A stretch of DNA of 55,724 bases, from IMG/VR virus record IMGVR_UViG_3300014822_000096, positions 1 through 55,724 of that record. One strand, written 5' to 3'. Under the pieces are notes generated by a model, which searched no databases, had not been told where the DNA came from, and worked only from the letters and a program-made list of their open reading frames with translations. This stretch comes from a virus. Its lineage: Duplodnaviria > Caudoviricetes. A program made the position numbers and the translations under genes. Shown one piece after another: positions 2,669 through 55,625 of this stretch; position 1 is the stretch's first letter, and the number at the start of each line of letters is the position of its first letter.

Positions 2669-4051
2669 GCGATAGCGCGTCTACGCCCAACGGCGTAGGC
2701 GTGCTTTTACATAGTCGGCAGCGTGCCGCCTACGCTGCCGACGTACGGAATAGGCGGCCGCCTAGTCGGCGCAAGCGGCTTGGCGACGTACTGGACGGGC
2801 TTCGCGCATCGCCTATAATGCGCGCAGTCTATCCGGTCCGTCGGCCGGGCTGGGCGGCCTGCATCGGGCGCGATAGCGTCTACGTCGGCCAGTGATTCGC
2901 TCTACCTACACTGGTATAGTGGATCGCTTGCCCGCGGAACCCGCGCTATTCCCCACTACATCCTCTACGAATAGCGCATCGCGTAGTCGGCGACAGCCTG
3001 CTACCTATTATCCTACGGTAGTATGGCGCAAAGCAGGCCTGCCCGCACGTCGAGCCGTGCGCATGGTAGCCGATGATTCGCCTGTCGGATAAGCTCGCGG
3101 TCCCGCCGCCTATTCCGCCGAGTAGGCGGCGTGGAAGGGGCGCATCGGCGCGCGTCTAGCGTCCGGCGCCACCCGTCCGTACCCTGGCCGCATCCGCTAC
3201 CCCTATCCAGCGGACGGCAAACCCTCACAACGGACGGTCACCGGCCCGAGGCGCAGGGCCCCTATACGCGACCGCATAGCCCTACACGGGGCGAATACCC
3301 CGATCCGGTATTCCCTCGGCTCCCTGCGGTGTAAGCCGTACTACGCCCGACGCGACCACTCCACCTCATCCCATGCCCTACTGCCCGCATCCCCGCACGC
3401 TCCGCGCACAGCGCGACCATGCGGCCCATGCGGACCCTGGTAGGGCGACAGGACCCATAGGCCCCGCCCGTCCTACCGGATGAGCGGGGCCATTCGCACG
3501 CCCCCTCCCGTAGCGGAGCGGTTCCGCCGCGAGAGGCCTACACGGAGGCTCTCTATGCAACACCTCCGTAAGTCCGGCCCCGTCTACGGGGCCTGCCCTG
3601 TGCTCCGTCACCCGACGGAGGCATACCACAGCGCCCCCCTCCCCCGTCCCCGAGGCGGGGCGCCCACGGTGGACGACATACCTGCAGCCCGTGCCGCCCG
3701 CGCACGGGTCCGTCGTTCACCGCGTCGGGGCCAGATCGAAACTCGAATCTGGCCCCACCCGGCCACGGGACGGCGTCGCCCGCGCCGTCCCCGCAACCGA
3801 ACGGCGCGGGCCCGAACCCGCGCCCACGCGGCTCTCGAGGCCTGGGCCCGTGACGCCGCCCTGCAGGCCGCCCTGGCCCGCATCAGGGCGGCCCGCTGAC
3901 CCCCTACCCCCTACCCCCTATCCTCCTACGCAGTCCACCGCTGCCTAGGTGTTTTCCATGCGCCTGTGACGGTCACCGACGCACTGCACGCATCGCCCCT
4001 CTACCCACACACCCTGCTGTGGGAGGGGGGCCTTACTCCAAGGAGTCCGCT

Positions 4052-4384
4052 ATGGCCATTCGCGGAGGAAACGTGTATCTCCCGTCCCCCACGACGGTAG
4101 TCATCGCCCGCTGGCTCTCGTCGATGTACGAGGACGCCAGCCCTCACATGGACTACCACCACTGCCCTCCGGAGGAGCAGCCTCCGGAGGTGCAGCTGTC
4201 CTATGCTCGGCGTATTGTTGCCGAGCTGTCGCAGCAGGAGGCCGCCGGTCACCTCTGGGGCCTGGAGCAGCTCCAGATGGGCGAGACTGCCCTCGCCCAA
4301 GCCCTCCGCGAGAGGGCGGGAAGGCTCCGATATTCTCCGGAGCGGAGGGACTACATCGAGGTTCAGGAGGAGGTGCAGACATGA
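4052..4384 (+). CDS. hypothetical protein
   Basis: AAGGAG then ATG at 4052; ATGA-coupled to the next gene. Confidence 0.75.
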   Translation: MAIRGGNVYLPSPTTVVIARWLSSMYEDASPHMDYHHCPPEEQPPEVQLSYARRIVAELSQQEAAGHLWGLEQLQMGETALAQALRERAGRLRYSPERRDYIEVQEEVQT

Positions 4385-4665
4385 CTCCTCCGCCACTCAT
4401 CGTCACCCGCCACTCCGGCGTAGTCGAATGGCTGCGCCAGCGTGGCATCGAGGGCGAGGTCGTCTCCCATGCCTCGCCCGACACCGTGCGGGAGCGCGTC
4501 GTCTACGGCGTGCTCCCACTCCACCTTGCGGCGGAGGCGGAGGAGGTCATCGCTATCGACCTCCCCAACCTCCGCCCTGACCAGCGGGGCAAAGACTTGA
4601 GCCCCGCCGAAATGGACTCGGCCGGCGCTCGTCTGCGCCGGTACCGCGTAGAGGCGCTAGATTGA
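4381..4665 (+). CDS. csx16: Csx16-like (VVA1548 family) protein, candidate cyclic-oligoadenylate ring nuclease
   Basis: 94 aa with IVTRHSGVVEWL, VYGVLPLHLAA and RGKDLSPAEM..AGARLRRYRV, the Csx16 family pattern. Confidence 0.8.
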   Translation: MTPPPLIVTRHSGVVEWLRQRGIEGEVVSHASPDTVRERVVYGVLPLHLAAEAEEVIAIDLPNLRPDQRGKDLSPAEMDSAGARLRRYRVEALD

Positions 4666-4755
4666 CTGCCACCCCTCGTCTGGAGTCTCCAGACGAGGGT
4701 TTTCATGGGCCTGTGTGGCCCGCAGGATAGGAGATGCACAAGTAAGGAGGTGCAC

Positions 4756-5391: not shown

Positions 5392-5442
5392 TGACTGTGG
5401 GAGGGAGGTCACACCCGCACACACCACACAGGAGGACCACAT

Positions 5443-7593: not shown

Positions 7594-8343
<750 letters not shown>

Positions 8344-8406: not shown

Positions 8407-9288
8407 ATGTCCGAGACCAAACTCGACGCCACTGTCGGCGCCAACTTCGGCTCGATCGTCGTGCCGAACATCTTCAAGCATCTTCGCGCTGGCCTCAAGG
8501 TTGACAGCGATGACAATACACCGATGGCCAGCGCCTTCCGGTCCATCTTCATCCAGCGCACAGCCGACGGCAAGTGCTACATGGCGTCAACTGGCGGCAA
8601 AACTCTTCGCGTCGTCCACTGGTGCGAGACGCCGCCTGATGGCGCACCGCCTTATCCGTTCAAGCCTCTGCGATTTCTGATAGACTCTGCAACATCAGAC
8701 ATTTGCAAGGACCGATCCGGCAGTAATGAAGTCGCTGAGATCACACTCCTCAGCGAGCCATCGGAAATCACGCCCGCACAGGTCACCATATCCGGACCAC
8801 GCAATTCCGCAACAAAACACTATGACATCATTACAGATCACGACGTGCTCAGCGTTTGGGACACGTCGTCAACGAGCAAGACTCCTATGTGGTTTTCCGT
8901 ACTGCCGACACAGAACACATATGACTATTCCTACAAAGCCCCGCACCACATGACTGTCAACCCAAAATATCTCTACGAGAGCAGCAGGTTCTTCGTCTCT
9001 CTCTACAAACACTTCGGCATACACTACAACGAATCCGTCGTTGTCGGTGTGCCTCGAAAGGAGACTGGAGCCACACTCCACCTCTCCGAAACTTTGAACG
9101 CCGACGACGATCGCTTTGCTTCCATCATCGTCTCCGTTATAGTCGTTGGCATCGACGACACAGCGGAGGACGGCGTAATCGTCCACCTGCCTCGCGAACT
9201 CCCCAACCCATCACCTGACACACAGGAATCGCAGACAACCACCCCCTCCCCTGCTGTGGGAGGGGGGTCCACAGGGGACACACCATGA
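8407..9288 (+). CDS. hypothetical protein, possibly a divergent sliding-clamp (beta) fold
   Basis: GGAGG RBS; MASTGGKTL resembles VATDGHRL and VNPKYL resembles FNxxYL of DnaN. Confidence 0.45.
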   Translation: MSETKLDATVGANFGSIVVPNIFKHLRAGLKVDSDDNTPMASAFRSIFIQRTADGKCYMASTGGKTLRVVHWCETPPDGAPPYPFKPLRFLIDSATSDICKDRSGSNEVAEITLLSEPSEITPAQVTISGPRNSATKHYDIITDHDVLSVWDTSSTSKTPMWFSVLPTQNTYDYSYKAPHHMTVNPKYLYESSRFFVSLYKHFGIHYNESVVVGVPRKETGATLHLSETLNADDDRFASIIVSVIVVGIDDTAEDGVIVHLPRELPNPSPDTQESQTTTPSPAVGGGSTGDTP

Positions 9289-17599: not shown

Positions 17600-18018
17600 G
17601 CGACCCCCCTCCCACAGCCGGCCTGCACTCACAGCACGACATGGACGACGCCGCGATCAACACCTACCTCATGAACAAAACACCTCCACACCTCAAACCC
17701 TACAACATCACAAAGGATGAGATTATCGGTGATTCCTACACGGCATACTACAAACGCATCCACAACATCATAGCGATGTGTCGTCTATACACACGAGACG
17801 CATCTTTCTATCCACGCCTGAACGCATACCTCAACAACGCGATAGCAGCCACAGATGCAGCCGTCCACGAATACCACACCATGCAAGACTCCCCATCTTA
17901 CGCTAAGTTCGCATCTATCGCAATCACACTTGAACTACTGCGCCAATATGCCAAAGAGTATAGATACAGACAACACTGGCCCGACTGCCTGTTCACGGAA
18001 CTGCCTCGCCGCAACTGA
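17596..18018 (+). CDS. hypothetical protein
   Basis: ATGA-coupled ORF. Confidence 0.65.
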   Translation: MSDPPPTAGLHSQHDMDDAAINTYLMNKTPPHLKPYNITKDEIIGDSYTAYYKRIHNIIAMCRLYTRDASFYPRLNAYLNNAIAATDAAVHEYHTMQDSPSYAKFASIAITLELLRQYAKEYRYRQHWPDCLFTELPRRN

Positions 18019-18392: not shown

Positions 18393-19259
18393 ATGTCCAA
18401 ACAGCGAACTGCGACCACCATCGTTCCATACTTCGGAGCAAAGGGACGCCTCGGCTCCAAGATCGCAGAACTGCTCGGACAGCACACCACCTATTTCGAA
18501 CCGTTCTGCGGCTCCCTCGGCGTATTCCTGGCCAAGCCACCCTGTCGCATCGAGGTGCTCAACGACGCCTACGCCGACCTCATCAACCTTATCCGCATCA
18601 TAGCGCATCCAACGCTCCACCTCCGCCTCTACCGCATGCTCCGCCGCCTACCCTCCTCCGAAGACCTCCACCGCGAATACAGACAACTCCTCACGCAACC
18701 ATTCGATCTCTCCTCACCAAACCTCGAACGCGCCGTCGCCTTCTTCTACGTCTCCTTGACCTCTCTCGCAGGCACAGTAGGTGTGCGAACAAAGCCAGCG
18801 TTCGCCGCCAGATATGACATGACAGGCGGCACATCCGTCTCTCGCCGCCGCTGCGCAGTCAACTCCATCCCGTTCTTCTTCCGCCGCCTCCGCGACGCAA
18901 TCATCATGAACCGCGACGCCTTCACCCTCATCGACCGCATCCCTGACACACCCGCCACCGCCATCTATTGCGACCCACCCTACCTCTCCAAGAAAGGCTC
19001 CTACATCCACGACTTCACGGACGACGATCACGCACGCCTGTCCGACTCCCTCTCCCGCTTCAAGCACGCCCGCATCGTCGTCTCCTATTACGACGATCCA
19101 CGCCTCCATGACCTCTACCCCAACTGGACATTTGTTCCCGCCCCCATCCGCGCAGGCCTTTCCTCACGTATGGCTCCGGAGATGCTCATATGCAACTTCG
19201 AGCCCCCCTCCCACAGCAGTGATGATTCGCCGCTATTCACACCAGGAGAGACGCAATGA
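18393..19259 (+). CDS. dam: Dam/D12-family N6-adenine DNA methyltransferase
   Basis: PYFGAK, YFEPFCGS (SAM binding), EVLND and YCDPPY catalytic motif. Confidence 0.93.
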   Translation: MSKQRTATTIVPYFGAKGRLGSKIAELLGQHTTYFEPFCGSLGVFLAKPPCRIEVLNDAYADLINLIRIIAHPTLHLRLYRMLRRLPSSEDLHREYRQLLTQPFDLSSPNLERAVAFFYVSLTSLAGTVGVRTKPAFAARYDMTGGTSVSRRRCAVNSIPFFFRRLRDAIIMNRDAFTLIDRIPDTPATAIYCDPPYLSKKGSYIHDFTDDDHARLSDSLSRFKHARIVVSYYDDPRLHDLYPNWTFVPAPIRAGLSSRMAPEMLICNFEPPSHSSDDSPLFTPGETQ

Positions 19260-20023: not shown

Positions 20024-20844
20024 TGAACCGCCAACCGTCCAAGCCTGCGGTACGTCTTGAGGTGTTGCCCCCCCTCCCACAGTGTAGGGACTGCGACACC
20101 CACATCACGGCCCACAATCCTGGCGTGCCGCTGCGACGCATCCCATCCAACGCGCCGTCGGACGCGCCAGCCATCCTCTTCGTCGGCCAGAATCCTGGCT
20201 ACACCGAGGACACGCACAACGCCGCCTTCATTGGCCGCTCGGGCGTCATCCTCTGCGGTGGTTGGCGTAGCGACAACGAGCACCGCTTCGATCTCCACCC
20301 ATCAACGCCCAATCCGCCCTCCACCTTCGTACCAGGCCCCTACGTAGACGGCGCTCGGCTCCGCGACCGAGCTCACCTCTACGTTGTCAACGCCGTCCGC
20401 TGCGCCACACCGTCCAACTCAGTTCCACCCGAACGCTCCCTCGCCGCCTGTTCACGCCACCTCATCCACGACATCCATGCCCTTGCCGCCCGCCACGACC
20501 GCCTGGCCATCGTCTGCCTCGGAGCAGTCGCAGTCCGAGCCATCTACAAGCACATCCTCGGATGGCCCTCCAAGCGATGCACGCAGACCGAAGCCTTCAC
20601 CGTCAACGGCGATCCGCAACCCATCATCGCGGGCCGCCCCATGCCCGTCTTCACGACATACCACCCCGCCTACATTCTCCGCAACCCCAACGCTCTCAAT
20701 GCAGTCAAGGACCATCTCACGCTTCTCCACACGCACTTCCTCACGACCGCAGCGTCCTCGATCCCGTCCCTGAATATCGTGGAGCCAGGACCGCCATGCC
20801 CCCCGCAAACCCAACGTCCCAACCATCCCAACCATCACGCATAA
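20020..20844 (+). CDS. uracil-DNA glycosylase superfamily protein (family 4-like)
   Basis: CRDC, ILFVGQNPG..ED...FIGRSG, NAVRC and TYHPAYILRNP. Confidence 0.88.
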   Translation: MMNRQPSKPAVRLEVLPPLPQCRDCDTHITAHNPGVPLRRIPSNAPSDAPAILFVGQNPGYTEDTHNAAFIGRSGVILCGGWRSDNEHRFDLHPSTPNPPSTFVPGPYVDGARLRDRAHLYVVNAVRCATPSNSVPPERSLAACSRHLIHDIHALAARHDRLAIVCLGAVAVRAIYKHILGWPSKRCTQTEAFTVNGDPQPIIAGRPMPVFTTYHPAYILRNPNALNAVKDHLTLLHTHFLTTAASSIPSLNIVEPGPPCPPQTQRPNHPNHHA

Positions 20845-23009
20845 TCTCGCTCGACATCGAGACCTACGGCATCGCAGCGACGAACTGGAAGGGAGCCCCC
20901 CTCCCACAGCAGAGGCACATGCATCCCGCCCGTTCGCTCGCTCAAGACGGCGTGTCCCGATCCGACCTCATCCTCACGTGCGCCGTCACCCGCTGCACCA
21001 TAGACCAACCACAGGACCATACCCCGCAACCCCAACTGTGGGAGGGGGGTCCTTGGCCTGCCAGAATCACGCCTCGCGAGACTCGGGTCTTCCGCCTGTG
21101 GAACCCCACGCACAAGCGGTGGCTTTGCGATTGGCTTACATGGTGCGATTGCATCATCGGCCAATCGCTCCTCTTCGACCTCTCCTATCTGCGGGCGTTG
21201 CCCCGCTTCGCCAAGCATCTGCCTTATGACAAACTCCTCGTTGATCTGACCGTCCTGAACTTCCTTGATGACGAGTCTCGACCTGAACGTTCCCTGAAAG
21301 CGTTGTGCCGCCTGCTCGGCGTCGCACGGTACGACGAGAAGGCGATGCTCGCACGCTCCGGCGAGTCCCGTTACCCGTCCGCGGACGATCCCGCCCTCGC
21401 CGAGTACAACGCGCAGGACTCGCACAACACGGCTGCGGCTGTCGCCATACTCACTCAGCGATTCATGGAGCGTGAGCCCGCTCGGGCCAAGGTCGCATTG
21501 TCCAACCGGACGCTCGCGTTCTACTCCGACTTGATCTGGTCCTGCCTGCACATGATCGAAGCGGGCATTCCCATGTCCCGCAACGCGTTGGAGTCCCTCC
21601 ACGCCAAGTGCGCAGCGGAGCTCGAAGCGTCGCGCAAGGAACTCATCGAACGACACAACATCCAGATTTCCGGCGCAGGCTCGTCCATCACAGCCAACGC
21701 AGTCGCAGCTCCCGACACACCATCGCTCTCCGACGATCTCGCCAAGCCCAAGTCACGCATTCAATGGATCGAGGAATCGTTCAGGGCTGTGCCTTCGTCC
21801 ATGTGCCGCAACGTCTTCAACGTGGACTCACCCGACGACATCCCCCTCCTCAAGTACACGAAGACAGGCTTCATCTCCACGGACCGCACGAATCGCGCAG
21901 TGCTCAAGTCGCTGCGTCCCGACCTCGCCGACGCCATCGACGCATGGGACCGGCACGACAACGCCAAGAGCCTCATCACCCGCTACCTCGATCCGCTCCT
22001 GCGAGACCACACCTCAACCACCATCGACAACCGATCCTGCGCTGTGCATGTCGGACCTGACGATCCCGATCTCCTGATGGGCTGGCCCTCCATTTTCATC
22101 GTGCCTGCGCCCGAGAAACACGGACGAGCGTCGGGCGGCCAGCGGCACATGCGATGCTCCTTCAAGCGTCCCGCGGCTCAGACGTTTCCTCCGGTGATCA
22201 AGGCATGCATGCGCAGCCCGTGGCCCGACGGCTTCATCGTCTCCTACGACTTCTCTCAGATCGACCTCCGCGTCGCCGCTCTGCTCTCCGGAGACGAAAC
22301 TCTCGTCCGTAACTACAAGGAGGGCAGAGACCTCCACGCAGACCGCGCCATTTCCATCTTCGGCAAAGACATCGTGAACGATCCGAACTTCGGTTGCGGC
22401 GACATGTCCTGCGATCCCCGCCAATGGGCCAAGCGGATCAACTTTTCTGACCTCTACCTCTCCGGCCCGCACACCATGCAGAAGAACCTCTACGTGGAGT
22501 CTGGCGTGCTGTTCCCTCTGGACTTCTTCAGACGCATCGTAGATGAGCGGAAACTACTCCGTCCTGGCCTTACTGCGTGGCAACAATCCCTGCTCCGCGA
22601 GGCTGGTCGCACGGGTCGTGTGTGGCTTCCTCTCCTCGGCCAGGCGCGCACATTCGCCACGGACAACACGACCCCACACAAGAGCGAGATCGTGAACTTC
22701 CCAGTCCAATCCGAAGCGTCCTTGACCACGATGTCCATGCAGATCGCCGTCCACAAACGCCTCACGAACCGCGGCGCCCTCCATCCCGCCGTCCGCATGT
22801 TTCTCAACGTCCACGACGCAAACTATTTCGTGGTCGCCAGTCGAGACGCCTACGACAATGTCCTCAAGCCAGCCATCGACGATGCCTTCGAGGAGCTGAC
22901 GACGACCGGCCACTGGTCTGATCTCCAGCGTCACTACGGCCACGATGTCCCATTGGCCATGTCCATCTCAGTCCCCGAGCCTGCTGAGGCTGTGGGAGGG
23001 GGGCGATAA
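20796..23009 (+). CDS. polA: family A DNA polymerase with 3'-5' exonuclease
   Basis: ExoI LDIET, ExoII FDLSYL, ExoIII YNAQD; motif A DFSQIDLR, motif B RQWAKRINFSDLY, motif C VHD; start inferred from AGGA then ATG 20796. Confidence 0.93.
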   Translation: MPPANPTSQPSQPSRIISLDIETYGIAATNWKGAPLPQQRHMHPARSLAQDGVSRSDLILTCAVTRCTIDQPQDHTPQPQLWEGGPWPARITPRETRVFRLWNPTHKRWLCDWLTWCDCIIGQSLLFDLSYLRALPRFAKHLPYDKLLVDLTVLNFLDDESRPERSLKALCRLLGVARYDEKAMLARSGESRYPSADDPALAEYNAQDSHNTAAAVAILTQRFMEREPARAKVALSNRTLAFYSDLIWSCLHMIEAGIPMSRNALESLHAKCAAELEASRKELIERHNIQISGAGSSITANAVAAPDTPSLSDDLAKPKSRIQWIEESFRAVPSSMCRNVFNVDSPDDIPLLKYTKTGFISTDRTNRAVLKSLRPDLADAIDAWDRHDNAKSLITRYLDPLLRDHTSTTIDNRSCAVHVGPDDPDLLMGWPSIFIVPAPEKHGRASGGQRHMRCSFKRPAAQTFPPVIKACMRSPWPDGFIVSYDFSQIDLRVAALLSGDETLVRNYKEGRDLHADRAISIFGKDIVNDPNFGCGDMSCDPRQWAKRINFSDLYLSGPHTMQKNLYVESGVLFPLDFFRRIVDERKLLRPGLTAWQQSLLREAGRTGRVWLPLLGQARTFATDNTTPHKSEIVNFPVQSEASLTTMSMQIAVHKRLTNRGALHPAVRMFLNVHDANYFVVASRDAYDNVLKPAIDDAFEELTTTGHWSDLQRHYGHDVPLAMSISVPEPAEAVGGGR

Positions 23010-23022: not shown

Positions 23023-23535
23023 ATGGAGCGACAGGAGCGATCCCCGATTCATCCCCAGTGGCATGTGTCCCTGCTCAAGCGGCGCATCCGGCTCTCGATC
23101 TTTCTGACGTGCGGCGTCCCGCTCCGCGTTGCCGCTGCCTTGTGCGACTGCAACGAGCGCACGGCTCGGGACACGGCGGCACAACTTGGGCTGCCCACGA
23201 ACCCCCCGCTCGACAAATGCGCCATGCGTGCCATTCGAGGCGTTCCGCCCTCCCAGATGCTCGATATGGCTGCGTTCCTGAGGACATCTCCGGCGGTCGT
23301 GGCTCCGCTGATCCGCGGCGTGGACCCTCCTGACGTGCTGTCTCGCATCGCCATGGCCATGTCGGTGACGGCCTGCTGGGCCAGGCTGTGGGAGGGGGGC
23401 CCTCGTCTCTCTGTGACGCGGGATTGGGGCACGGCGTTCGGCGAGGCGTATCGAGACTCGCACAGGCGGGCTATGGCCGCTATACTCAGGGGCAACCCGT
23501 ACCACACGCGACCCACGGGAAGCAGGTCCACGTGA
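23023..23535 (+). CDS. hypothetical protein, possible HTH
   Basis: GGAG RBS; PLRVAAALCDCNERTARD. Confidence 0.5.
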   Translation: MERQERSPIHPQWHVSLLKRRIRLSIFLTCGVPLRVAAALCDCNERTARDTAAQLGLPTNPPLDKCAMRAIRGVPPSQMLDMAAFLRTSPAVVAPLIRGVDPPDVLSRIAMAMSVTACWARLWEGGPRLSVTRDWGTAFGEAYRDSHRRAMAAILRGNPYHTRPTGSRST

Positions 23536-25823: not shown

Positions 25824-25912
25824 ACTGGTTTAGACCCCCCTCCCACAGCGGTGGGGGTGAGCGCCAATGTGCCTCACCCCCACCATTCTTTCCACGGTGA
25901 CCCAACGCTGCG

Positions 25913-27950: not shown

Positions 27951-27972
27951 CCCCCCTCCCACAGACCAGTCT

Positions 27973-31558: not shown

Positions 31559-31586
31559 GAGCCCCCCTCCCACAGCCAGTGGCGGC

Positions 31587-35583: not shown

Positions 35584-36504
35584 TTATATCCCGAGCAAGT
35601 CCTCACGCAACGCTTCCTCGACACGCTGCCTCGGAGTCCCCTGCGCCACGTTGGCGTTCATGGCCATCGCCAGACTCAGCTCCTGCAGCAAGTCCCTCCT
35701 CGGCTCTCCGATCGGCACAGCGCCCCTCGGCAGCCTCCGCCCTGCCCGCAAAGCAGCCGCAAGCTCAGGATTCGCTTGGGCCATCCTCGCCTGATTGATC
35801 GCCGCAAGCTCAAGCAACCGCTCCGTCTTCAACGTCGCACCAAGCCGAGCCGCAGCCACCGCAGGATCGAACTGGGACCCCCCTCCCACAGCCTCTGCGG
35901 ATAGACCCCCCTGATCCAGACCTGACGCAGACCGGAAGAATCTGTCCGCAACGAACAGCCCGCCAGCGCCCGCCGCCAGACCCGTCCCCACCGGATTGTC
36001 CAGAAACGCGTTCCGGCTACGTTCGAACGCCCTACGAACGATCCGCTCACCGAACCCTCGCCTGCCCGCTGCAGCCACAGCCCCACCCGCAACCGTCTCG
36101 CCCACAGGCGTCGTCTGCGGCACACGGAGGAGCCGACGCAATGCCCGAACCTGCGCGTCCTGACCCGTGATCCTCGCGTTCAGACGCTCTGCTGCCGTGA
36201 CCGCTTCGAGGTCCGCCTTCCTCACCGAAATGAACCGGAACGGCGTACGCGATCCGTCAGGCCTCAGGAACGACACCTGCACACGACCAGGCGCCTTGTC
36301 CGAAATCCGAATCGCCGCGACACGAGCATCCCTCGGCAGACCCAACTTCTCAGCCACAGAGCCCACCGCACGCAACACGTTCTCCCGTGCAGCGAACCCC
36401 GCAGCCACACGCGAGCCGACACGACCCAGCGCAGCCCTACCGCCGCCCAGCGCAGATCGACCAAGACGCTCCAGAAGGCCAAGACCAACGCGAATCTGGC
36501 TCAT
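35584..36504 (-). CDS. putative internal virion protein
   Basis: R/A/G-rich; position in operon. Confidence 0.6.
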   Translation of the reverse strand: MSQIRVGLGLLERLGRSALGGGRAALGRVGSRVAAGFAARENVLRAVGSVAEKLGLPRDARVAAIRISDKAPGRVQVSFLRPDGSRTPFRFISVRKADLEAVTAAERLNARITGQDAQVRALRRLLRVPQTTPVGETVAGGAVAAAGRRGFGERIVRRAFERSRNAFLDNPVGTGLAAGAGGLFVADRFFRSASGLDQGGLSAEAVGGGSQFDPAVAAARLGATLKTERLLELAAINQARMAQANPELAAALRAGRRLPRGAVPIGEPRRDLLQELSLAMAMNANVAQGTPRQRVEEALREDLLGI

Positions 36505-40167: not shown

Positions 40168-42909
40168 TGTGCCAGGCCTCGCGGTCCGTTGCGTCTCCTC
40201 AATCCTACCCTTGGCACGGACTGCGAGCAACTTGTAGTCCAGCTCAGGGCAGAACGTCTGAACGCCCATAGCCGCACTGTTCGACCGTGGCGACGACTTC
40301 GCGCTGATGTTCGGATCAATGCCCGTCGCCGTCAACGGAGCGTCCCACGTGCCCGATCCGTCGACGACGCTGCCCACTGACGTGTTCCCCTGGGCCATCG
40401 GCGTGCCCACCACAGACGCCGATGTCTTGTCGCCCTCATAGAACAGACCCTGAAACTTGGCGTCCACCGACCCCGCCGCAGCGCCCCCCACATCCGTGAA
40501 CGCAGCCTGGATGCTCTCCACCTTCTTGATCCGCATGTGGTCATTGTCCTCCAGCGTCACCCTCTCGTTCACCTGCACAGGCAACGCTGGAGACACCACG
40601 CGACACACCACAGGATTGAACCCGATGCGGTCCCCCCCTCCCACAGCAGAGGGGTCTGCCACCGTCAGCGTCGTCCCATTCACGCGTGCCGTGACCGTCG
40701 TCGATCCGCCGATTCGAGACGGCGTCGCCGAGTCGAGCACATAGACCTTCAGCCCCACCACAGCGTCAGTCGAGATCGAGTCCGCAATCGTGATGTTGGA
40801 CCCATTCACCGCGCTGACCGTGGTCCTGAGCACATCCAGACCCTCATCCAGCCACTGTGACTGAGCCTTCGATCGGTCCACATCCCAAACATACACCGTA
40901 TACGTGCCCGTCGAACCCGATCCCGAGTTCCGCAGCGCAAGCGCACGATCCACCAGCGGAGAAGTGTCGTCGCCGATGAGTCTGTGCGTCGTTCCACGCA
41001 CGATCGTGGTGAACCCCATGTCCTCATATTCCACGATCCTGCCCGTGTTCAGCCACAACGCAGCGCCGTCCTGCGTCTGTGTGTTCACGATGAAGACAGC
41101 GTTCGCCACGGGGTCATACGCCATTCTGATCTTGTCCAGCGAACCCTGCCAACGCCTCCGAATCACCTCGTTCATGTTGGCGACATCCCTGAGGGCGCCG
41201 GAGGCATCGACCACCTTCAGCCCATTCTCGCTCATGTAGTACACGAGCGTGCCCGTAGCAGCGCTGGCGCCGGCTGACGTTATCCCGAATCCCTCATGCG
41301 CCGGCGTCACGTCGAGCAGGAACCCCTCCCTCTTGATGAAGTAAATCCTCGTCTTCGCCAAGCCTATGACGATGTCGCCCAACCGCACGAGCTCAACAAT
41401 CTCATCCGAAATGCTCTCAGGCACGTAGATGTTCGCCACGGGGAACGCTTCGGAGTTGCGATCCTCGAACGACGACCACATCAACGCGCCTGAGTCGAGC
41501 CCGAACTTCGTTGTGTCCACGTCCTTCGGGTCGAGCGTCGTTGCCACATTAGGATCGCCCTTGATCCGAGACACCAACAGAGTCCCGTCGTATCCCACAC
41601 ATTCACCGCCACGCGGCGGCTCCAGCAGAAACTGCCTCGTCTCGTCAAGCACTGCCGACAACGCCAGCGACGCATCGCTCTTCTCGTAATAAATCGCCGA
41701 GATTTCCTGACCCGAAGCCTTCCCAAATGTCGCCCCACTATTGGACGCGACCACCGCATTCTTGAGGTCATAAATGCCGTCCAGGAACAGAGTCGATGAC
41801 GTGAACGTTGCGTCCTGCAGCAACGCCGATCCAGGCTCGATCGAACGAAAGAGCATCACGGAATCCCAATCATCAGGATCATACGAAATGACGAAGTAGA
41901 ACACGCTGTTTATCGGCGAACCGTCATCGTTATTCCATGCGACATCGTTGCTGGTGACCGTGATCTTGTTGGACAGCGGACTCTTCCTGCCCGTCCGTGA
42001 GTCGAGCATGGCGAACGCGAACGTATAGGTCCCCACGGGCACTGAGCCCTTCTTGGGCGATCCGCTCATGGCGTCCACCAGACCATCGATGTCCTCCGTG
42101 TTCTGATATCCCTCCGTAACCCACGGCCCAGAGAAACTCGGATCAGCAGGAATCGCAGACTGACCGTCCGACGTAAGCTCATACACATTCACCGCATCGG
42201 GCCCGATGACGGACAGTCTTGCGAACGGTGGGTCTTTCTGCGTCGTTGAATCAAAACGCACGTGTCCCCAGAATGTCTTGCCCTTATAGTCCAGCGTCGG
42301 TCTTGGGCCAACGCCCACGGAAACCGTTCCGTTCGGTCCGCCTGCAAGCGTGTGCGACAAAACGCCAGCGCCGTCCACATCGAATCGCAAGATCGTGATC
42401 TGCCGTCCACGTATCCCTATGAACAACTTCCGATCGAGCGTCGTTGCGTCCCACGGCTGCGTTTCATCGACGCCGAAGTCAGCCTCGATGGTCAGGTTCT
42501 GGCTGGCGTCGGACCCCTTCCATGCGCGCACCCACACGTTGTCCCGAGAACCAGCAGGCTTGCTCGGACTATGCGTCCGCACGACCACCCCGTACACCTC
42601 ATCGTTCTCCCCTGCGCGCATCACGAACGACCGCATATCCGTAATCGTGTAGTCGTTCGGAGGTCCTGCCGTTCCGCCGTCCCACGACGATGCTCCAGTC
42701 GGCAGCGTGATCGTGATCGCCTTCTTCCACCCAGGCGCAGGCCGCAGATGTCCCTCCGTAGACCCGTCCCATCCGGTCAACTCTGCGACCACCTGATCTC
42801 CGTCACGTGTCCGCCACGGAGCCCCTGCGCGGGACAGCGAGCCAGCCACACGCAACCGTGTCGTGGGCATCGTCCATTCCGATCGCAGGCCAAGGTGCTC
42901 AACCGACAA
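40165..42909 (-). CDS. tail nozzle/tubular protein B-like
   Basis: 914 aa, beta-rich, downstream of the adaptor; synteny. Confidence 0.55.
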   Translation of the reverse strand: MSVEHLGLRSEWTMPTTRLRVAGSLSRAGAPWRTRDGDQVVAELTGWDGSTEGHLRPAPGWKKAITITLPTGASSWDGGTAGPPNDYTITDMRSFVMRAGENDEVYGVVVRTHSPSKPAGSRDNVWVRAWKGSDASQNLTIEADFGVDETQPWDATTLDRKLFIGIRGRQITILRFDVDGAGVLSHTLAGGPNGTVSVGVGPRPTLDYKGKTFWGHVRFDSTTQKDPPFARLSVIGPDAVNVYELTSDGQSAIPADPSFSGPWVTEGYQNTEDIDGLVDAMSGSPKKGSVPVGTYTFAFAMLDSRTGRKSPLSNKITVTSNDVAWNNDDGSPINSVFYFVISYDPDDWDSVMLFRSIEPGSALLQDATFTSSTLFLDGIYDLKNAVVASNSGATFGKASGQEISAIYYEKSDASLALSAVLDETRQFLLEPPRGGECVGYDGTLLVSRIKGDPNVATTLDPKDVDTTKFGLDSGALMWSSFEDRNSEAFPVANIYVPESISDEIVELVRLGDIVIGLAKTRIYFIKREGFLLDVTPAHEGFGITSAGASAATGTLVYYMSENGLKVVDASGALRDVANMNEVIRRRWQGSLDKIRMAYDPVANAVFIVNTQTQDGAALWLNTGRIVEYEDMGFTTIVRGTTHRLIGDDTSPLVDRALALRNSGSGSTGTYTVYVWDVDRSKAQSQWLDEGLDVLRTTVSAVNGSNITIADSISTDAVVGLKVYVLDSATPSRIGGSTTVTARVNGTTLTVADPSAVGGGDRIGFNPVVCRVVSPALPVQVNERVTLEDNDHMRIKKVESIQAAFTDVGGAAAGSVDAKFQGLFYEGDKTSASVVGTPMAQGNTSVGSVVDGSGTWDAPLTATGIDPNISAKSSPRSNSAAMGVQTFCPELDYKLLAVRAKGRIEETQRTARPGT

Positions 42910-43117: not shown

Positions 43118-44037
43118 ACTGTCAGCGCCTCCACATTCCGCGAGTCATCCCTCGTGAAGTGATCGTGCAACACACCATCCATGTTCGTCACCCTATCCGA
43201 AACCGCCTTCGCCGCAGACGCGAACAGCCGTGAATGCTGCCGTTCGAACTTCTCAGACCTGCCCAACGCCACGCCCCAGCTCACAGCAGCAGCCTGCTTC
43301 ACCGCCTCCGCCGCATGCGAAAACTCCATCGGCGCAATCTCATATTTGATCCCCCCTCCCACAGCAGTGGTCATGGCATTCCTCACCGTCAACGTTGCTG
43401 TGCCCGCGTTGTAGTTATTCGACTGCGCCGTGATGATCCGTTCCTCCCACACGCCCGTCGCTCCATTGAGGATGCGGAGATAGCAGCCCAGATACGCGTT
43501 CTCACGCCGATCGAACAGGCCCAGCGAGGGACTCATGGTCGCCTTGAACGTGGTCGATGTCAATACCTCACCCAGATTGTTCGTCCCGTCGTGGTAGTGC
43601 ACCCACACATCGCCAGTCGGTATGTACCACAACTCCACATCGGAAACATCGGCTGTGGGAGGGGGGTCGAACCGCAACATCGAGCCTTCCAACCGCCACA
43701 CCGGCGACGATGCGCTGCGTATTGTGCGGTGGTCCACCTCACCGACGATGACTCTCGGTCCCGTCTTCGACATGAGGTAGATGCCTCGCACCTCACCGAC
43801 GTTGGGCGGCAACTGGTAGTCTGCCTGATCCTTATTGAGAGCGAGCGGCATCCGCATGACGACTGGAGCCGACGAGACCATCTGCACCATCGACCATGTG
43901 CTGGCGATGGCGGGCTGCACGAACTTGTTGACGATGTCCTGCGGCGTGTACTTGCCCTGCCCAAACGCCTCGTCGAAGTGATCGGCGAGCCCGTCGAGAA
44001 TGCTCCAGAGGATCGAGCCTGTGCTGTGCATGGTCAA
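43105..44037 (-). CDS. head-tail adaptor-like protein
   Basis: QADYQLPPNV and LRFDPPP...VELWY pattern; synteny. Confidence 0.55.
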   Translation of the reverse strand: MTMHSTGSILWSILDGLADHFDEAFGQGKYTPQDIVNKFVQPAIASTWSMVQMVSSAPVVMRMPLALNKDQADYQLPPNVGEVRGIYLMSKTGPRVIVGEVDHRTIRSASSPVWRLEGSMLRFDPPPTADVSDVELWYIPTGDVWVHYHDGTNNLGEVLTSTTFKATMSPSLGLFDRRENAYLGCYLRILNGATGVWEERIITAQSNNYNAGTATLTVRNAMTTAVGGGIKYEIAPMEFSHAAEAVKQAAAVSWGVALGRSEKFERQHSRLFASAAKAVSDRVTNMDGVLHDHFTRDDSRNVEALTVWPS

Positions 44038-46402: not shown

Positions 46403-47443
46403 TCACACCGACATCTGCTCCCGCTGAGCTCTTGCGAGCTCCTGCAGGATTCTGTCCCGCATGTATTCGCGCTGGCGAATGTCCAGCTCGTTCGGCGGGA
46501 CTTCCTTCGGGTCAGGAGGCGTGATCTCCTTGTCCGCGATTTCGAGAAGTGAATCCTCTCCGTCGCCAGCGAACGTCGCACGACCGAGCAGGTCGGGATC
46601 GCCGCCAAGCGCACGGGCCTTATTCAGCACACTCTCCGCAGCTTCACGCACTGCGGGTCCGATCCAGTCAATGTCAAACACCTCCTCCTCAGCCTTCTTC
46701 TTCTCCAGAATGCGGTTCGCCTCGACCATGATGTCGCTTGCAAGAACCGCCTGCGCCTTCTCGGCGGCCCCCTTGCCCCTGATCCTCTCGTTCACGGAGA
46801 GCAGTTTCTTGAGCCCCTCGTGCTTGTCGAATATCCCCTCAACATTCTCCTTGAACATCTTCTGCAGCGACTGCCGCTGCAGATCGATCAGCCTCTTCAG
46901 ACTCTCCTCGTACTCCTTGGGCAGGGACCCCCCTCCCACAGCAGGGTTGGCGGCGGGGTTGGCGGCGGGATTGGCGACGCCATTGACGGCACCGTTGACG
47001 GAAGTCGGCGGCGTCTCTGCTGGGACTCCTGCGCCGGAGGGCGGCTGAGACTGCGGTTGGCCTACCTCTTGACTCATGACTCTGGCGACCTCCTGCTCGA
47101 TGGACTGCGGGTCCCACCCCGCCAGCGAAAGGGCTGCCCTGTATGACCGCTCGATCTGCTTCGGGTCTGCGGACGCAGCCTGATCTGGACTCGGGAACAG
47201 CGATCGCACCGTCCGTTCGAGCTGCTCAGCCTTCTGCGCACGCTCAAGCAGCTCCGCCACCGTGTACGACTTCCCACCTACGACGACCGGCACGTCCAGA
47301 TTGATGGGGCCCGTGGACGCACCGCCGCTGCCCGCAGAGCCGGACGACGCCGCAGTGGACGCAGGAGCCGTCGCAGGCGCAGTGTTGGCAGTCTGCGCAG
47401 GATCGACTGCAGTCTGTTCAGACGTGATCTGTTCGTCGGCCAT
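46403..47443 (-). CDS. capsid scaffolding protein
   Basis: low-complexity N-terminus, PVVVGGKSYTVAELL, charged helices; synteny. Confidence 0.65.
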   Translation of the reverse strand: MADEQITSEQTAVDPAQTANTAPATAPASTAASSGSAGSGGASTGPINLDVPVVVGGKSYTVAELLERAQKAEQLERTVRSLFPSPDQAASADPKQIERSYRAALSLAGWDPQSIEQEVARVMSQEVGQPQSQPPSGAGVPAETPPTSVNGAVNGVANPAANPAANPAVGGGSLPKEYEESLKRLIDLQRQSLQKMFKENVEGIFDKHEGLKKLLSVNERIRGKGAAEKAQAVLASDIMVEANRILEKKKAEEEVFDIDWIGPAVREAAESVLNKARALGGDPDLLGRATFAGDGEDSLLEIADKEITPPDPKEVPPNELDIRQREYMRDRILQELARAQREQMSV

Positions 47444-49536: not shown

Positions 49537-49638
49537 GTGAGCCCCTTGCCCGAGCGCGTCTCGGCTGTGGACCCCCCTCCCACAGCAGTCCAGTCGGCAG
49601 TCCCCGCAGAGGCTCCAGACCGGAGGGCGGGAGGGGGA

Positions 49639-51944: not shown

Positions 51945-52511
51945 TCAACCGTCAACGCCACGATCGAGTCGATGGGAGTCGTCTGGGTCGTCTGGGGGGT
52001 CGTCTGGGGGGTCGTGGACGGCTGAGAGTCCGTTGTCTCCCTGGCTGTGGGAGGGGGGCTCTGGCGGGATGAAGGCGATGTGTTCGCCGGTGATGTCTTC
52101 CGCGATGTGGTCTTCGATGGCGGCATGGTCTTCGATCTCCTGTGTGGGCGTCGCCTTGTCGAGGATTTTACGGGCTGAGAGCCGCATCTCCACGGTGCCG
52201 TCGGCGTTCTTGCGGTATTCGGCGTGGGCCATGCGTCCGGAGGCTTCGACGCACGCGGCGATGACTGCGCGGAGTTCTCGGGATGCGGAGAGGGTTTCCT
52301 GCGGCTGGCCTGCGCGGAAGATGTCGATGAGTGTGGATGTCCACTCCTGCATTGTGAACCCGTTGCGTGCGCATGCGGCCTCGACGGCGGAGATGTCGAG
52401 GAGGGATTCGACGCGGTATGGCGAGATGGCCGCGGACGCCTTGGCGGCGGCCTTGGCGGCGGCGTTGGACGGGGCCATTGCACGGGGATGGTCAGGGTCA
52501 CGAACGGTCAT
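51945..52511 (-). CDS. candidate terminase small subunit
   Basis: helical core upstream of terL; synteny only. Confidence 0.4.
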   Translation of the reverse strand: MTVRDPDHPRAMAPSNAAAKAAAKASAAISPYRVESLLDISAVEAACARNGFTMQEWTSTLIDIFRAGQPQETLSASRELRAVIAACVEASGRMAHAEYRKNADGTVEMRLSARKILDKATPTQEIEDHAAIEDHIAEDITGEHIAFIPPEPPSHSQGDNGLSAVHDPPDDPPDDPDDSHRLDRGVDG

Positions 52512-53091: not shown

Positions 53092-53973
53092 TCACGGTTG
53101 CGCTGGCTGGGGAATGGGCGGTCCGACAGGCGGCTGAGCTGCAGCCTGGTTGAGGGCTTGTGCGGTGGGGAAGAGTCTGTTGAAAACCTCTGGATTGAAT
53201 GTGGACGCGTTGGCGGGAGGCACTGGTCCAGAGGCATTGAAGATATCGGTGGGATTGAGGTTGGAGGACGGGGGTAGGGACGCAGCGAAGGATGCGCGTC
53301 GGAAGGCGTCTCCGAACTGTGCGGCTGCCGCGAAGTCTGGTGTTGGCTCCTGTGGTATGATGACTCTCGCATCGGGCTGTGGGAGGGGGGGAGGGTTTTC
53401 TGAGTTGAGCACTTGCGACACAGCGTTGATGCGGGCGCGGCGGGCTGCGATGACTGCGGCTTGCCGAGCGGCGGATGGTGAGATTTCACCTGACTCGATG
53501 CGAGGTTGGAGGGTTTGGAGCGCGTCGGCGAAGGCTGCTCTGGCTGCGTTCTGGATGGAGGTCCTCGCCTGGTTGAAACGTTGCGCGGGTGTGAGGGACT
53601 GTTGTGCGGCTGGGGCTGCCTGGACGCTCTGTGGCGCTTGTGTCGCTGGAGCGTTTGGGCTTGGCTGTGGGAGGGGGACATTGAAGGGCGCCGTTGAGCG
53701 CGAGCCTGCGGTGGTCTTGGAAGAGGCGCGGGATGATTGTGCTGGCTTGGTGGGTGCGCTGGGTGGATTGACGGGATTGAGGACGACGGAGGGGGTGGAG
53801 GTAGATTGCTGGTCCGTCTGGGCTGGGGAGGGGGGTTGGCCTGGTTGGGCTTGTGGCGTGATGACGACGTTGACTGAGGGGCGCTGGTTGGGCTGGGGGA
53901 GGTCTAGTGTGAGGATGCCCTTGAGCGGCTCTGAGAAGTCGAGCATGGGCGTGGGCGTCGAGAATCCGGACAT
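53092..53973 (-). CDS. Pro/Gln/Ala-rich, largely disordered protein
   Basis: AGGAG RBS; ATG at 53973. Confidence 0.6.
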   Translation of the reverse strand: MSGFSTPTPMLDFSEPLKGILTLDLPQPNQRPSVNVVITPQAQPGQPPSPAQTDQQSTSTPSVVLNPVNPPSAPTKPAQSSRASSKTTAGSRSTAPFNVPLPQPSPNAPATQAPQSVQAAPAAQQSLTPAQRFNQARTSIQNAARAAFADALQTLQPRIESGEISPSAARQAAVIAARRARINAVSQVLNSENPPPLPQPDARVIIPQEPTPDFAAAAQFGDAFRRASFAASLPPSSNLNPTDIFNASGPVPPANASTFNPEVFNRLFPTAQALNQAAAQPPVGPPIPQPAQP

Positions 53974-53985
53974 GGAGGTTCTCCT

Positions 53986-55542
53986 GTGACGTACGCGGAT
54001 GATGAACATGATAGCAGGGAAGGCTCGACCGTGGAGCGAGGGTCTGTGCTGGAGTTGCGGTCGGTGGCGCCCATGAAGGTGGCGAGGGCGCTACTTGGCA
54101 GGATGGATGTGTGCCTGGGGGATGTGGCGGGTGTGCATGCGGTGTACGAGAAGGATGGGATGCACTACCTGTGGAGCGGGTCGCAATGGAAGGAGATCGA
54201 GGAGAAGGCTCTTGAGGACTTCGTGTGGTTTTGTTTGGAGGACGCGGTGGTCGTCTCGGGTGACGATGATGAGGGAGATGGTGAGGAGGGGCGGAAGAAA
54301 CTGAATCCTGGCGTGCACTATGTGTGGGAGGTCGTGAGGGCGTTGCAGGCGCTGGTGCGGTTCCCGTATGTGTGGGAGCCTGCGTGGGTGGGCAAGACGC
54401 CGGAGCAGCTTGAGGCGTTGCCGGACCCTGAGCATGTCGTGGCGTTCGAGGACGTGTTGGTGGACGTTGCGGGCTCGGCGAAGGCAGGAACATGGCGGGT
54501 GATGGAGCGAGGGCCGGACTTCTTCACAACGGCTGTGCTGCCGTGTCGGTGGGAGGATGCGCTGGAGTGTGGATGTCCGACGTGGGAGCGGGCGATGGAC
54601 GAGTGGGGGTGCGGCGATCCTGTGTGGACCGAGCTCAGGGAGCGGGTGTACGGGTATGGGCTGATGCGGACTCGGAAATATTCGAAATGGCTGCTTGAGT
54701 ATGGGAAGGTTAGGGGAGGCAAGGGGACTGGGACGAGGGTGCTGCGATGGTTGCTCTCAGGCAGTCAGTTCATGGGCACCAAGATGGATGAGCTCGCGGA
54801 CAGGTTTGGACTCGATGGTGTGGAGAACTGCCGCGTGCTCGTGATCAGCGAGGCGCATGATCTGGATGGGAGGACGGGGTCGAGGCTCGCCAGTGTGATC
54901 AAGAGCATCGTGGGCGGCGATCCCGTGGTCATCAACGTGAAGCATCGGCGACAGAAGGCGAACGTGGTGCTCAGGGCGCTTCCGATTGTGCAGACTAATC
55001 CGATGTTGAGTCTGCCGAATGACGCGAGGGGTCTGAGCAGCAAGATGCTGGCGCTTGAGTTTCGGCGGAGTTTTGAGGGCGCTGAGGATTTTGGGCTGGA
55101 CGAGAAGCTGCGAAAGGAGTTGCCAGGGATAGCGAGGAGGTTCGTGGAGGCGGCTGTGCGGCTGGAGGCGAGCGAGTCTGGAGAGAAGTTCGTGATGCCT
55201 GAGCGGAGCATGGCGGTGGTGCACAGGTTCGATGTGGAGAGCAATGCGTTCGATGCGTTCCTGAGCGATTGCTTCGTGCAGGCGCCGAAGGGGTGGGTGA
55301 ATGCGGATGAGATCAGGCGGTTGCGGCGCATGTGGGAGGAGGAGACGGGATGCAGACTGTTGGATCGGTCAAGGTCGTCCGTGAGCGACCAGATGCTGTT
55401 GCGGCGATTGTGCGAGTATTCGACGTGGAACCTCGCGATGGCGCGGCGGTCGTGGGTGGATGCTGAAGGGACACAGCGGGTTTCGCGTGGACTGCAGGGC
55501 TTGGCTGTGCGGCGTAATATTGAGATAGGCGAAATCGAGTAG
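53986..55542 (+). CDS. SF3 helicase (D5/P4-type) without a primase domain
   Basis: D5_N-like region (VAFEDVLVD, PDFFTT..LP), Walker A GKVRGGKGT, VISE, KSIVGGDPV.INVKH and motif C VQTN. Confidence 0.88.
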   Translation: MTYADDEHDSREGSTVERGSVLELRSVAPMKVARALLGRMDVCLGDVAGVHAVYEKDGMHYLWSGSQWKEIEEKALEDFVWFCLEDAVVVSGDDDEGDGEEGRKKLNPGVHYVWEVVRALQALVRFPYVWEPAWVGKTPEQLEALPDPEHVVAFEDVLVDVAGSAKAGTWRVMERGPDFFTTAVLPCRWEDALECGCPTWERAMDEWGCGDPVWTELRERVYGYGLMRTRKYSKWLLEYGKVRGGKGTGTRVLRWLLSGSQFMGTKMDELADRFGLDGVENCRVLVISEAHDLDGRTGSRLASVIKSIVGGDPVVINVKHRRQKANVVLRALPIVQTNPMLSLPNDARGLSSKMLALEFRRSFEGAEDFGLDEKLRKELPGIARRFVEAAVRLEASESGEKFVMPERSMAVVHRFDVESNAFDAFLSDCFVQAPKGWVNADEIRRLRRMWEEETGCRLLDRSRSSVSDQMLLRRLCEYSTWNLAMARRSWVDAEGTQRVSRGLQGLAVRRNIEIGEIE

Positions 55543-55625
55543 TGCGGCAGGTTGGATCAGGGTAAGGACCCCCCTCCCACAGCAGTGGTTGTTGTGGTGT
55601 GCGGGGTCTGGAATGGAGGTATGAC

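Follow-up and report, generated by a model that had tools for sequence, protein, structure and literature searches.

A dispersed 15-bp DNA word in a hot-spring phage genome and its apparent counterparts across an uncultured phage clade

Introduction

The DNA uptake sequences of bacteria, DUS in the Neisseriaceae and USS in the Pasteurellaceae, are host-genome signals that occur in both orientations and are read in several frames, with preferences among them. Here we analyse a dispersed 15-bp word, GCTGTGGGAGGGGGG, in the virus record IMGVR_UViG_3300014822_000096 (Duplodnaviria; Caudoviricetes), the whole stretch of which (55,724 nt) was examined and is called the window below. The word had been singled out in a preliminary description of this DNA.

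Among phages, three described systems of dispersed short sites invite comparison. Phage LLS has 23 Chi sites, one per 1.86 kb, in a 20:3 orientation; P1 has one Chi per 1.90 kb; Pseudomonas phage MD8 has 32 Chi sites, oriented 32:0; and Chi-rich lambdoid phages are mostly without recombination genes of their own (PMC12315714). Known Chi sites are 5–8 nt long (10.1101/2020.08.13.249359). Phage tf carries 14 copies of a nick-bearing 9-mer in a genome with converging gene blocks and terminal repeats, and its nicks are independent of the direction of transcription (PMC3517423). The stoperators of Cluster A mycobacteriophages are asymmetric sites of ~13 bp that lie predominantly in one orientation, in temperate phages that carry a repressor as well as an integrase or parABS (PMC6550527).

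Results

The word occurs far more often than null models predict

At up to two mismatches the window contained 28 copies of GCTGTGGGAGGGGGG, of which 23 were exact, 4 had one mismatch and 1 had two (Table 1). The density was one copy per 2.0 kb, with 11 copies on the + strand and 17 on the − strand, and these counts and coordinates were the same as those given in the preliminary description. In 100 dinucleotide shuffles of the sequence the mean number of copies was 0.21 and the maximum was 2. When copies were sorted by 0, 1, 2 or 3 mismatches, we found 23, 4, 1 and 5, respectively, compared with 0, 0, 0.1 and 3.0 in 20 order-3 Markov simulations. The set is all-or-none: a tail of decayed copies is missing, and sub-words of GCTGTGGGAGGGGGG were rare outside the full copies. 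Between 14 and 15 positions of the word are nearly invariant, corresponding to ~30 bits. The flanks of the copies were unrelated apart from a weak 3′ (T/C)C. This extension had been described as usual; TC was found at 14 of the 28 copies.

The position of the copies was compatible with random placement (coefficient of variation 0.885 versus 0.949), which corrects the earlier impression of an even spread. We also considered and rejected regular spacing, alternation of the copies between strands, and the motif-free zone at 9268–17603 as a meaningful gap, the probability of a gap of at least 8351 being 0.32. Nine of the 28 copies lay outside called genes, compared with an expectation of ~15% non-coding DNA (p = 0.018).

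The copies depend on DNA rather than on protein sequence

The 19 copies within called genes are read in five frames, as AVGGG (8 copies), LWEGG (2), PPPTA (4), PPSHS (2) and PLPQ (3), and 10 of them are co-oriented with the local gene while 9 are antisense. Two of the copies counted as genic, 53376 and 53664, are probably non-coding too. We carried out 40 synonymous-codon shuffles in which the encoded proteins were kept. On average 6.1 exact copies remained (maximum 7), compared with the 23 observed, and every exact copy that survived lay outside the shuffled codons. The preliminary description had named a count matched by a Markov or codon null model as the result that would speak against the signal, and the nulls came nowhere near 28 copies, or 23 exact ones.

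Alignment with orthologues was possible at 12 sites, in the family A DNA polymerase gene (polA) and in five structural proteins compared with up to 10 related genomes. No change in length was associated with the word at 7 of the 12. Copies 40633, 31671, 31753 and 43351 were without extra length relative to the nearest orthologues, and 46928 was the only structural-protein copy located in a longer linker (+6 residues). Three copies overlie conserved peptides, namely PLPxQ in polA, A-x-G-G-G-S in an 1180-aa protein and F-D-P-x-P in a 308-aa protein; the PLPxQ peptide under polA copy 20896 was invariant or nearly so in ten homologues. Because lengths are mostly unchanged, conserved peptides are overlaid and synonymous shuffling erases copies, the copies appear to have been written by substitution in a manner that depends on codon choice. 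Among the cluster members only two variant proteins were found, one of which retains AVGGG with a change three residues upstream; this is too little to count. From these comparisons of sequence we conclude that selection, or some other process operating on DNA, appears to act on the nucleic acid and not on the peptide.

This was also the view of the preliminary description, and its grounds, copies between genes as well as copies read in at least five frames, held up (9 copies outside called genes, 19 within them in five frames). The codon-preserving shuffle that it proposed removed the exact in-gene copies, leaving the mean of 6.1, and the ortholog alignment that it proposed as a means of telling insertion from recoding pointed mostly to recoding, with one longer linker. 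It had further raised the concern that the copies could be an adapter or assembly artefact. In a separate Logan assembly, which probably derives from the same source run, a single contig of depth 113 covered 17000–36999 with 15 copies and 2 differences. Contigs from runs X2 and X3, which represent related strains of ~87–97% identity, span some of the copies. A mobile 15-bp insertion would be consistent with 15 being a multiple of three and with copy 46928, whose segment is 6 residues longer than in four of five orthologues. Insertion is already refuted for most copies by the sites without length change and the three conserved peptides, and the copies have no conserved flanks; artefact is opposed by the Logan contig and by the analogous words in relatives from other metagenomes described below. 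We consider that neither insertion nor artefact has any appreciable chance of explaining the copy set.

Related phages carry different words

By its polA, the window belongs to an uncultured phage clade that this gene defines. Homologues of polA number in the hundreds, at 33–40% identity, on contigs of ~50–60 kb. A polA profile search of IMG/VR gave 145 loci, 80 of which were fetched and analysed, and a gene for an ERCC4-type nuclease followed polA in all 80. No close relatives were found in viral contigs with the terminase and polA proteins, nor in JGI metagenome contigs with polA. Megablast of 30000–50000 against GenBank phages gave no match; polA identity was below 60% in all 734 matching GenBank phage records and at most 30.3% among the 30 matches listed, and the terminase and a 670-aa protein had no match among these phages.

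The top 8-mer reached a z of at least 9 in 67 of the 80 clade loci (null maximum 8.2), and GGGG was contained in it in 57 of those 67. The complete genomes that have a word carry 14–54 copies of it each. The words of the nearest relatives are ATCGGATGGGAC, GGCTTGGGCGGC, CCTTGAGTGGGGG, CGTGGGGGGAC and GGCTGGTGGGG, at 24–54 copies each, and each of the two nearest has a different dispersed word. With up to one mismatch allowed, the counts in six complete genomes were 28 copies of GCTGTGGGAGGGGGG in the window (G000), 27 of tATCGGATGGGACtc in G001, 28 of GGCTTGGGCGGCaag in G002, 24 of caCCTTGAGTGGGGGg in G003, 30 of CGTGGGGGGAc in G004 and 54 of gGctGGTGGGG in G005; these six words hold 18–30 bits. 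Five further complete genomes were inspected. Four of them (G006 to G009) have shorter G-run words, with exact-match counts of 10 for AGTGGGGGA, 24 for AGCGGGGA, 20 for GTGGGGGGA and 15 for TGGGGGGA, and the fifth, G010, had no over-represented word. Most copies of long words were outside genes (15 of 24 in G003), and many of these directly preceded a start codon. For short words the share of copies in genes was close to the coding fraction, and particular frames were strongly preferred. This division is predicted by selection on DNA under protein constraint.

Across the six genomes 65 copies were co-oriented with transcription and 69 were antisense, in agreement with the lack of orientation bias reported earlier for the window (10 versus 9). 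When the clade was pooled, 534 of 790 copies lay on the strand opposite to polA. In the window the orientation ratio was 0.65, and 0.49 was predicted from GC skew alone. We rejected strand bias as evidence of polarity, since it was close to the GC-skew expectation in most genomes.

The search for the motif in relatives that the preliminary description had called for thus recovered words of their own and not GCTGTGGGAGGGGGG, and the word of the window appears to belong, as one dialect among others, to a set of G-run words that spans the clade. Such dialects argue for a conserved reader with shifting specificity. An intermolecular G-quadruplex would not serve as a general explanation, given how few G-runs the relatives' words contain (for instance ATCGGATGGGAC and GGCTTGGGCGGC).

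The copies could also be a by-product of mutational or repair bias, through short-patch conversion or a polymerase error context, with no function of their own. The all-or-none copy set, an orientation that follows GC skew and random spacing are all in keeping with this idea. It is contradicted by the 14–15 fixed positions, which no known bias produces, by dialects that differ between relatives sharing a polymerase, and by the particular synonymous codons with which copies are written over conserved peptides; a reverse transcriptase was looked for and not found. We regard a bias without function as very improbable.

Several other words were seen in the clade. Locus L281 has a GATGCGGTGCTC-like word without a G-run at ~15 copies in 14 kb, and L253/L207 have another, GCTGCGGTG, at 9–10 copies. 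At 40677–40738 of G003 (loci L294–L295), two copies of its word end a perfect inverted repeat of ~60 nt, situated in a 790-nt spacer that adjoins the helicase gene where the gene blocks diverge. G002 (loci L289–L292, an IMG/VR record 61,975 bases long) has 10 occurrences of GCGATCGC, compared with 0–3 in other clade genomes. We take GCGATCGC to be the HIP1 word of cyanobacteria, and its excess may hint at a cyanobacterial host for G002.

The word is absent at density from sampled hosts and unrelated phages

Searches for GCTGTGGGAGGGGGG gave single hits only, at 18 loci in IMG/VR, at 65 loci in metagenomes and among the 80 of at least 120 loci listed from genome collections. None of the fetched loci with single hits was related to the window. 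Likewise, the G003 word was present in multiple copies only in G003 and its close relative. Five test genomes showed no excess over control, and a 12-mer of the window's word, with up to one mismatch, was not enriched in 61 Deinococcota genomes. In 301 Pseudomonadota genomes only the 9-mer CTGGTGGGG, taken from the G005 word, was counted, and in the 5 of these genomes richest in it the G005 11-mer had at most 26 occurrences. The matches listed from a literal search of papers for the words were all unrelated, and within limited literature searches the words were not found in print. These searches indicate that the word is, by its occurrence in sequence collections, apparently private to the phage line among the hosts, metagenomes and unrelated phages sampled. 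One Pseudomonadota genome, G129, has an abundant word that we cannot explain: CTGGTGGGG occurs 945 times in its 4.5 Mb, compared with 147 for the reversed control, and the 11-mer GGCTGGTGGGG occurs only 13 times.

These results bear on mimicry of a host signal, in which the word would be, or contain, a Chi-like sequence read by host RecBCD or AddAB, accumulated against degradation from DNA ends and serving to recruit host recombination. The word is G-rich and asymmetric, its density of one copy per 2.0 kb equals that of LLS and P1, the pooled clade has the strand bias given above, and sequences known as host Chi occur within the words of two relatives, GCTGGTGG in the G005-type word and AGCGG in the G007 word. 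On the other side, a word of ~30 bits with 14–15 fixed positions contrasts with the 5–8 nt of known Chi, and the 11:17 split of the window, near the GC-skew expectation, contrasts with 20:3 in LLS and 32:0 in MD8. The phage moreover owns recombination genes, for a PD-(D/E)XK exonuclease and an AAA_24/Sak4-like ATPase, and no enrichment was found in the 5 test genomes or the 61 Deinococcota, the 301 Pseudomonadota having been counted for CTGGTGGGG only. We consider host mimicry unlikely, if still a contender. If the word were such a mimic, the dialects would serve as predictions of Chi-like sequences, as yet unknown, in uncultured hosts.

A conserved replication–recombination module contains candidate readers

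A D5/SaPI-Rep-like helicase, the PD-(D/E)XK exonuclease and the Sak4-like ATPase (Table 1) were all three present in 10 of 10 word-bearing complete genomes. The word-less relatives G010 and HMO-2011, a distant cultured phage, are without all three genes. Copies lay within 400 nt downstream of the 3′ end of the helicase gene in four of four long-word genomes (at 33, 397, 43 and 100/151 nt), and G002 has a further copy 43 nt upstream of the start of this gene. The helicase matched only the C-terminal (helicase) half of primase-helicase PHROGs, and no separate primase was recognised anywhere in the window genome. The C-terminal half of the exonuclease, ~235 aa, is without family assignment, and no relative of this protein was found in the PDB.

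The preliminary description had proposed helix-turn-helix-like proteins at 10614, 16748, 19256, 23023 and 52515 as binders. This proposal found little to sustain it: only 10614–10910 gave a helix-turn-helix hit, which fell below threshold (21.1 bits, cut-off 23), and the other four had no Pfam or PHROGs match. Among ten related genomes only 52515 matched, weakly, in two (33% over 76–87 residues). No conserved helix-turn-helix protein was found, and searches for tyrosine and serine integrases (PF00589, PF00239) gave none in five complete genomes; a resolvase was not found either.

Binding sites of a regulator or compaction protein that recognises double-stranded DNA, comparable with stoperators or P1 C1 operators, would fit an asymmetric word with ~25–30 copies per genome and lineage-specific variants, as in Cluster A stoperators (PMC6550527), that is used in both orientations and prefers non-coding DNA. 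The missing integrase and helix-turn-helix protein stand against a regulator of this type, as does the balance of 65 co-oriented and 69 antisense copies, stoperators being predominantly one-way in the same account. We doubt this explanation and rate it as having only a slim chance.

The ERCC4-type nuclease gene that follows polA in all 80 loci brings a further explanation into view, that the word is where a phage nickase cuts packaged DNA, in the manner of T5, phiKMV-like and tf/LUZ24-like phages. Phage tf shares the two converging gene blocks of the window and has terminal repeats and nicks that do not follow the direction of transcription, and the consensus of phiKMV extends over 19 positions (PMC3517423). 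The 17 sites and near-sites of tf are all on one strand, compared with the 11 and 17 on the two strands here, and G010 has the ERCC4 gene and no word. Nicking at the word seems rather improbable.

The stretch at 53240–53985 (~750 nt), where the gene blocks of the window diverge, had no codon-position GC signal on either strand, and both strands have open reading frames (ORFs) there. The stretch adjoins the helicase gene and may have a regulatory role or act as an origin. PHROGs matched no ORF of either strand within 53092–53989, local tblastn against the relatives matched only ORF 52515–53681 (residues 214–300), and scans of 51500–55724 for repeats, promoters and terminators found nothing beyond the word.

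Source and gene layout of the window genome

The window is a whole IMG/VR virus record and a complete genome, a circular assembly of ~55.6 kb marked by a 99-base end overlap. The 99-base terminal repeat is this assembly overlap and contains no copy of the word. The DNA comes from a hot-spring metagenome (three runs of one hot-spring study). Its genes form two converging blocks. The + block extends from 53986 across the record end to 31558 and encodes the D5/SaPI-Rep-like helicase, early genes, a D12-class methyltransferase, polA, the ERCC4-type nuclease, the PD-(D/E)XK exonuclease, the AAA_24/Sak4-like ATPase and a Cpn10-like protein. In the − block (53237 down to 31587) are the genes for the terminase, for structural proteins that matched hardly any family and for the 1180-aa protein, which resembles large polyvalent proteins. 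The latter (31587–35129, −) was conserved in 10 of 10 related genomes and had no Pfam or PHROG match; language-model features placed it nearest to clusters (scores 0.90–0.93) that contain LPD38, LPD39 and LPD3, which are domains of large polyvalent phage proteins.

Inspection of the remaining genes revealed a phage-encoded Cpn10 (GroES-like) co-chaperonin at 31223–31558 (+; Pfam E = 3.5e-06), which closes the + block, and a 94-aa protein at 4381–4665 (+) that matches Pfam Cas_VVA1548 (Csx16-like, E = 4.7e-21), with no cas genes seen nearby. ARAGORN gave two tRNAs on the − strand, one of unclear identity with a four-base anticodon (caat) at 859–930 and a tRNA-Ser (CGA) at 3798–3873.

Table 1. 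Copies of GCTGTGGGAGGGGGG and genes for candidate readers in the window
Feature	Coordinates	Strand	Context
Exact copy	4016..4030	+	Between genes, 21 nt upstream of ATG 4052
Copy, 2 mismatches	5394..5408	+	Between genes, 34 nt upstream of ATG 5443
Exact copy	8259..8273	-	Antisense in ORF 7594-8343, 70 nt before stop; PPPTA; adjoins Pro-rich linker
Exact copy	9253..9267	+	Sense in ORF 8407-9288, 21 nt before stop; AVGGG; complementary C-run just upstream
Exact copy	17604..17618	-	Antisense over codons 3-8 of ORF 17596-18018
Exact copy	19203..19217	-	Antisense, C-terminal tail of D12-class adenine methyltransferase gene 18393-19259
Copy, 1 mismatch	20069..20083	-	Outside called genes, between 19763-20023 and polA
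Exact copy	20896..20910	-	Antisense in polA; encodes conserved PLPxQ of exonuclease domain; same length in 10 homologues
Copy, 1 mismatch	21035..21049	+	Sense, variable loop of polA; LWEGG
Exact copy	22989..23003	+	C-terminal tail of polA, 6 nt before stop; AVGGG
Exact copy	23385..23399	+	Sense in ORF 23023-23535; LWEGG
Exact copy	25835..25849	-	Between genes 25509-25823 and 25913-26560, next to GC-rich hairpin
Copy, 1 mismatch	27951..27965	-	Directly after stop of PD-(D/E)XK exonuclease gene, 7 nt before ATG 27973
Exact copy	28286..28300	-	Antisense in uncertain ORF 27973-28500
Exact copy	31562..31576	-	28-nt spacer at convergence of the two gene blocks
Exact copy	31671..31685	-	Sense, C-terminal region of 1180-aa protein; AVGGG
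Exact copy	31753..31767	+	Antisense in 1180-aa protein; inverted pair with 31671
Exact copy	34890..34904	-	Sense, 1180-aa protein, conserved peptide (AAGGGS in G002, AGGTG in G001); no length change
Exact copy	35878..35892	-	Sense, 306-aa protein, variable segment
Exact copy	40633..40647	-	Sense, 914-aa protein; same length in 10 orthologues
Exact copy	43351..43365	-	Sense, 308-aa adaptor-like protein, variable loop
Exact copy	43652..43666	+	Antisense, 308-aa protein, conserved F-[DR]-P-x-P; no length change
Exact copy	46928..46942	-	Sense, 346-aa protein, low-complexity linker, +6 residues versus 4/5 orthologues
Exact copy	49572..49586	-	Between terminase gene and 670-aa gene; GCTGTGG pairs with CCACAGC just downstream
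Exact copy	52044..52058	+	Antisense in ORF 51945-52478; PPSHS
Exact copy	53376..53390	+	~750-nt stretch without codon-position signal, upstream of helicase gene
Copy, 1 mismatch	53664..53678	+	Same ~750-nt stretch, 288 nt from copy 53376
Exact copy	55569..55583	-	26 nt past helicase gene stop
D5/SaPI-Rep-like SF3 helicase, candidate reader	53986..55542	+	In 9/10 related genomes
PD-(D/E)XK (RecB/Cas4-type) exonuclease, candidate reader	26589..27950	+	In 9/10 related genomes
AAA_24 / Sak4-like recombination ATPase	28561..29685	+	Same conserved module

Discussion

The copies of GCTGTGGGAGGGGGG, their excess, their dependence on DNA and not on protein, the absence of the word elsewhere and the clade-wide pattern are established. 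We propose that GCTGTGGGAGGGGGG may be a DNA-level recognition word of this phage lineage. It would have arisen by point substitutions at tolerant sites, that is, in spacers, in protein linkers and tails and over peptides that already fitted, and it would be one dialect of a signal common to the polA-defined clade, with 14–54 copies per lineage. We infer that the reader would be a phage-encoded protein of the conserved replication–recombination module, and also which protein this might be. Likeliest is the D5/SaPI-Rep-like self-loading helicase, and the words could then serve it as dispersed sites for loading or priming. Alternatively, the RecB-type exonuclease together with the Sak4-like ATPase may read the word as a phage-private Chi-like signal. 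Taken as a whole, a clade-dialect recognition word with a reader from the phage's own module is a tentative reading of the sequence data, and we think it somewhat more apt to be wrong than right.

Several observations weigh against it. The reader may be host-encoded, and the G005-type and G007 words contain known host Chi sequences, as described above. Random spacing and the lack of strand alternation disfavour priming sites that are used regularly, and the helicase is without a recognisable primase domain. The link between word and module is a comparison of 10 genomes with 2 and is confounded with phylogenetic distance, and a preference of the word for non-coding DNA (9 of 28 versus ~15%, p = 0.018) may be all that lies behind the copies close to the helicase gene. 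Finally, no protein or domain stood out when identities inside word groups were set against those across groups, domain by domain, for polA, the ERCC4 nuclease, the exonuclease, the Sak4-like ATPase and the helicase.

A more specific proposal is that the word is a private mark of self. Each lineage of this environmentally widespread clade would write its own G-run word of 8–15 nt ~25 times, and a co-evolving phage enzyme, either the RecB-type exonuclease with the Sak4-like ATPase or the self-loading helicase, would read it and so tell phage DNA from host DNA, as a phage-encoded analogue of Chi. We offer this as a speculative idea with little probability attached. If a phage protein does read the word, the word would represent a new class of cis signal spread over whole phage genomes, and, if true, it would provide a handle on DNA replication or protection in an entirely uncultured clade (145 IMG/VR loci). 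The dialects could also mark lineages in metagenomes, and perhaps hosts or immunity groups.

Host Chi mimicry, nick sites and stoperator-like sites each differ from the word in at least one defining property. The preliminary description did not recognise the word as a stoperator, a Chi site or an uptake sequence. For stoperators and classical Chi this was borne out under the definitions of those systems (length, polarity, orientation and lifestyle), and the word is probably no uptake sequence either. In common with DUS and USS, the word occurs in both orientations and several frames and appears to be written by substitution into tolerant sites. Unlike these signals of host genomes, GCTGTGGGAGGGGGG was never found in more than one copy in other loci (80 of at least 120 genome-collection loci listed; 65 metagenome loci).

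As in the Chi-enriched phages LLS, P1 and MD8 (Zheng et al. 2025, PMC12315714), a G-rich asymmetric word formed by substitution is present about once per 2 kb, in genes and between them. The window departs from those phages in its 14–15 fixed positions, weak polarity, own recombination genes and a word that is the lineage's own; no sampled host carries this word at density. The nick motifs of T5, phiKMV-like and tf/LUZ24-like phages, whose function is presented as a decades-old puzzle (Glukhov et al. 2012, PMC3517423), are likewise short, over-represented, lineage-specific and scattered irrespective of transcription, in genomes with converging blocks. They lie on one strand (the top strand in tf), whereas the word of the window lies on both.

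In contrast to the Cluster A mycobacteriophage stoperators, as set out by Mavrich and Hatfull (2019, PMC6550527), the word is free in orientation, neither PF00589 nor PF00239 was present in any of the five complete genomes searched (parABS was not searched) and the sole helix-turn-helix hit was below threshold. It nevertheless resembles them in being an asymmetric site of the ~13-bp type, in its similar numbers and in a consensus that drifts among relatives, and in the stoperators this consensus drifts together with its reader.

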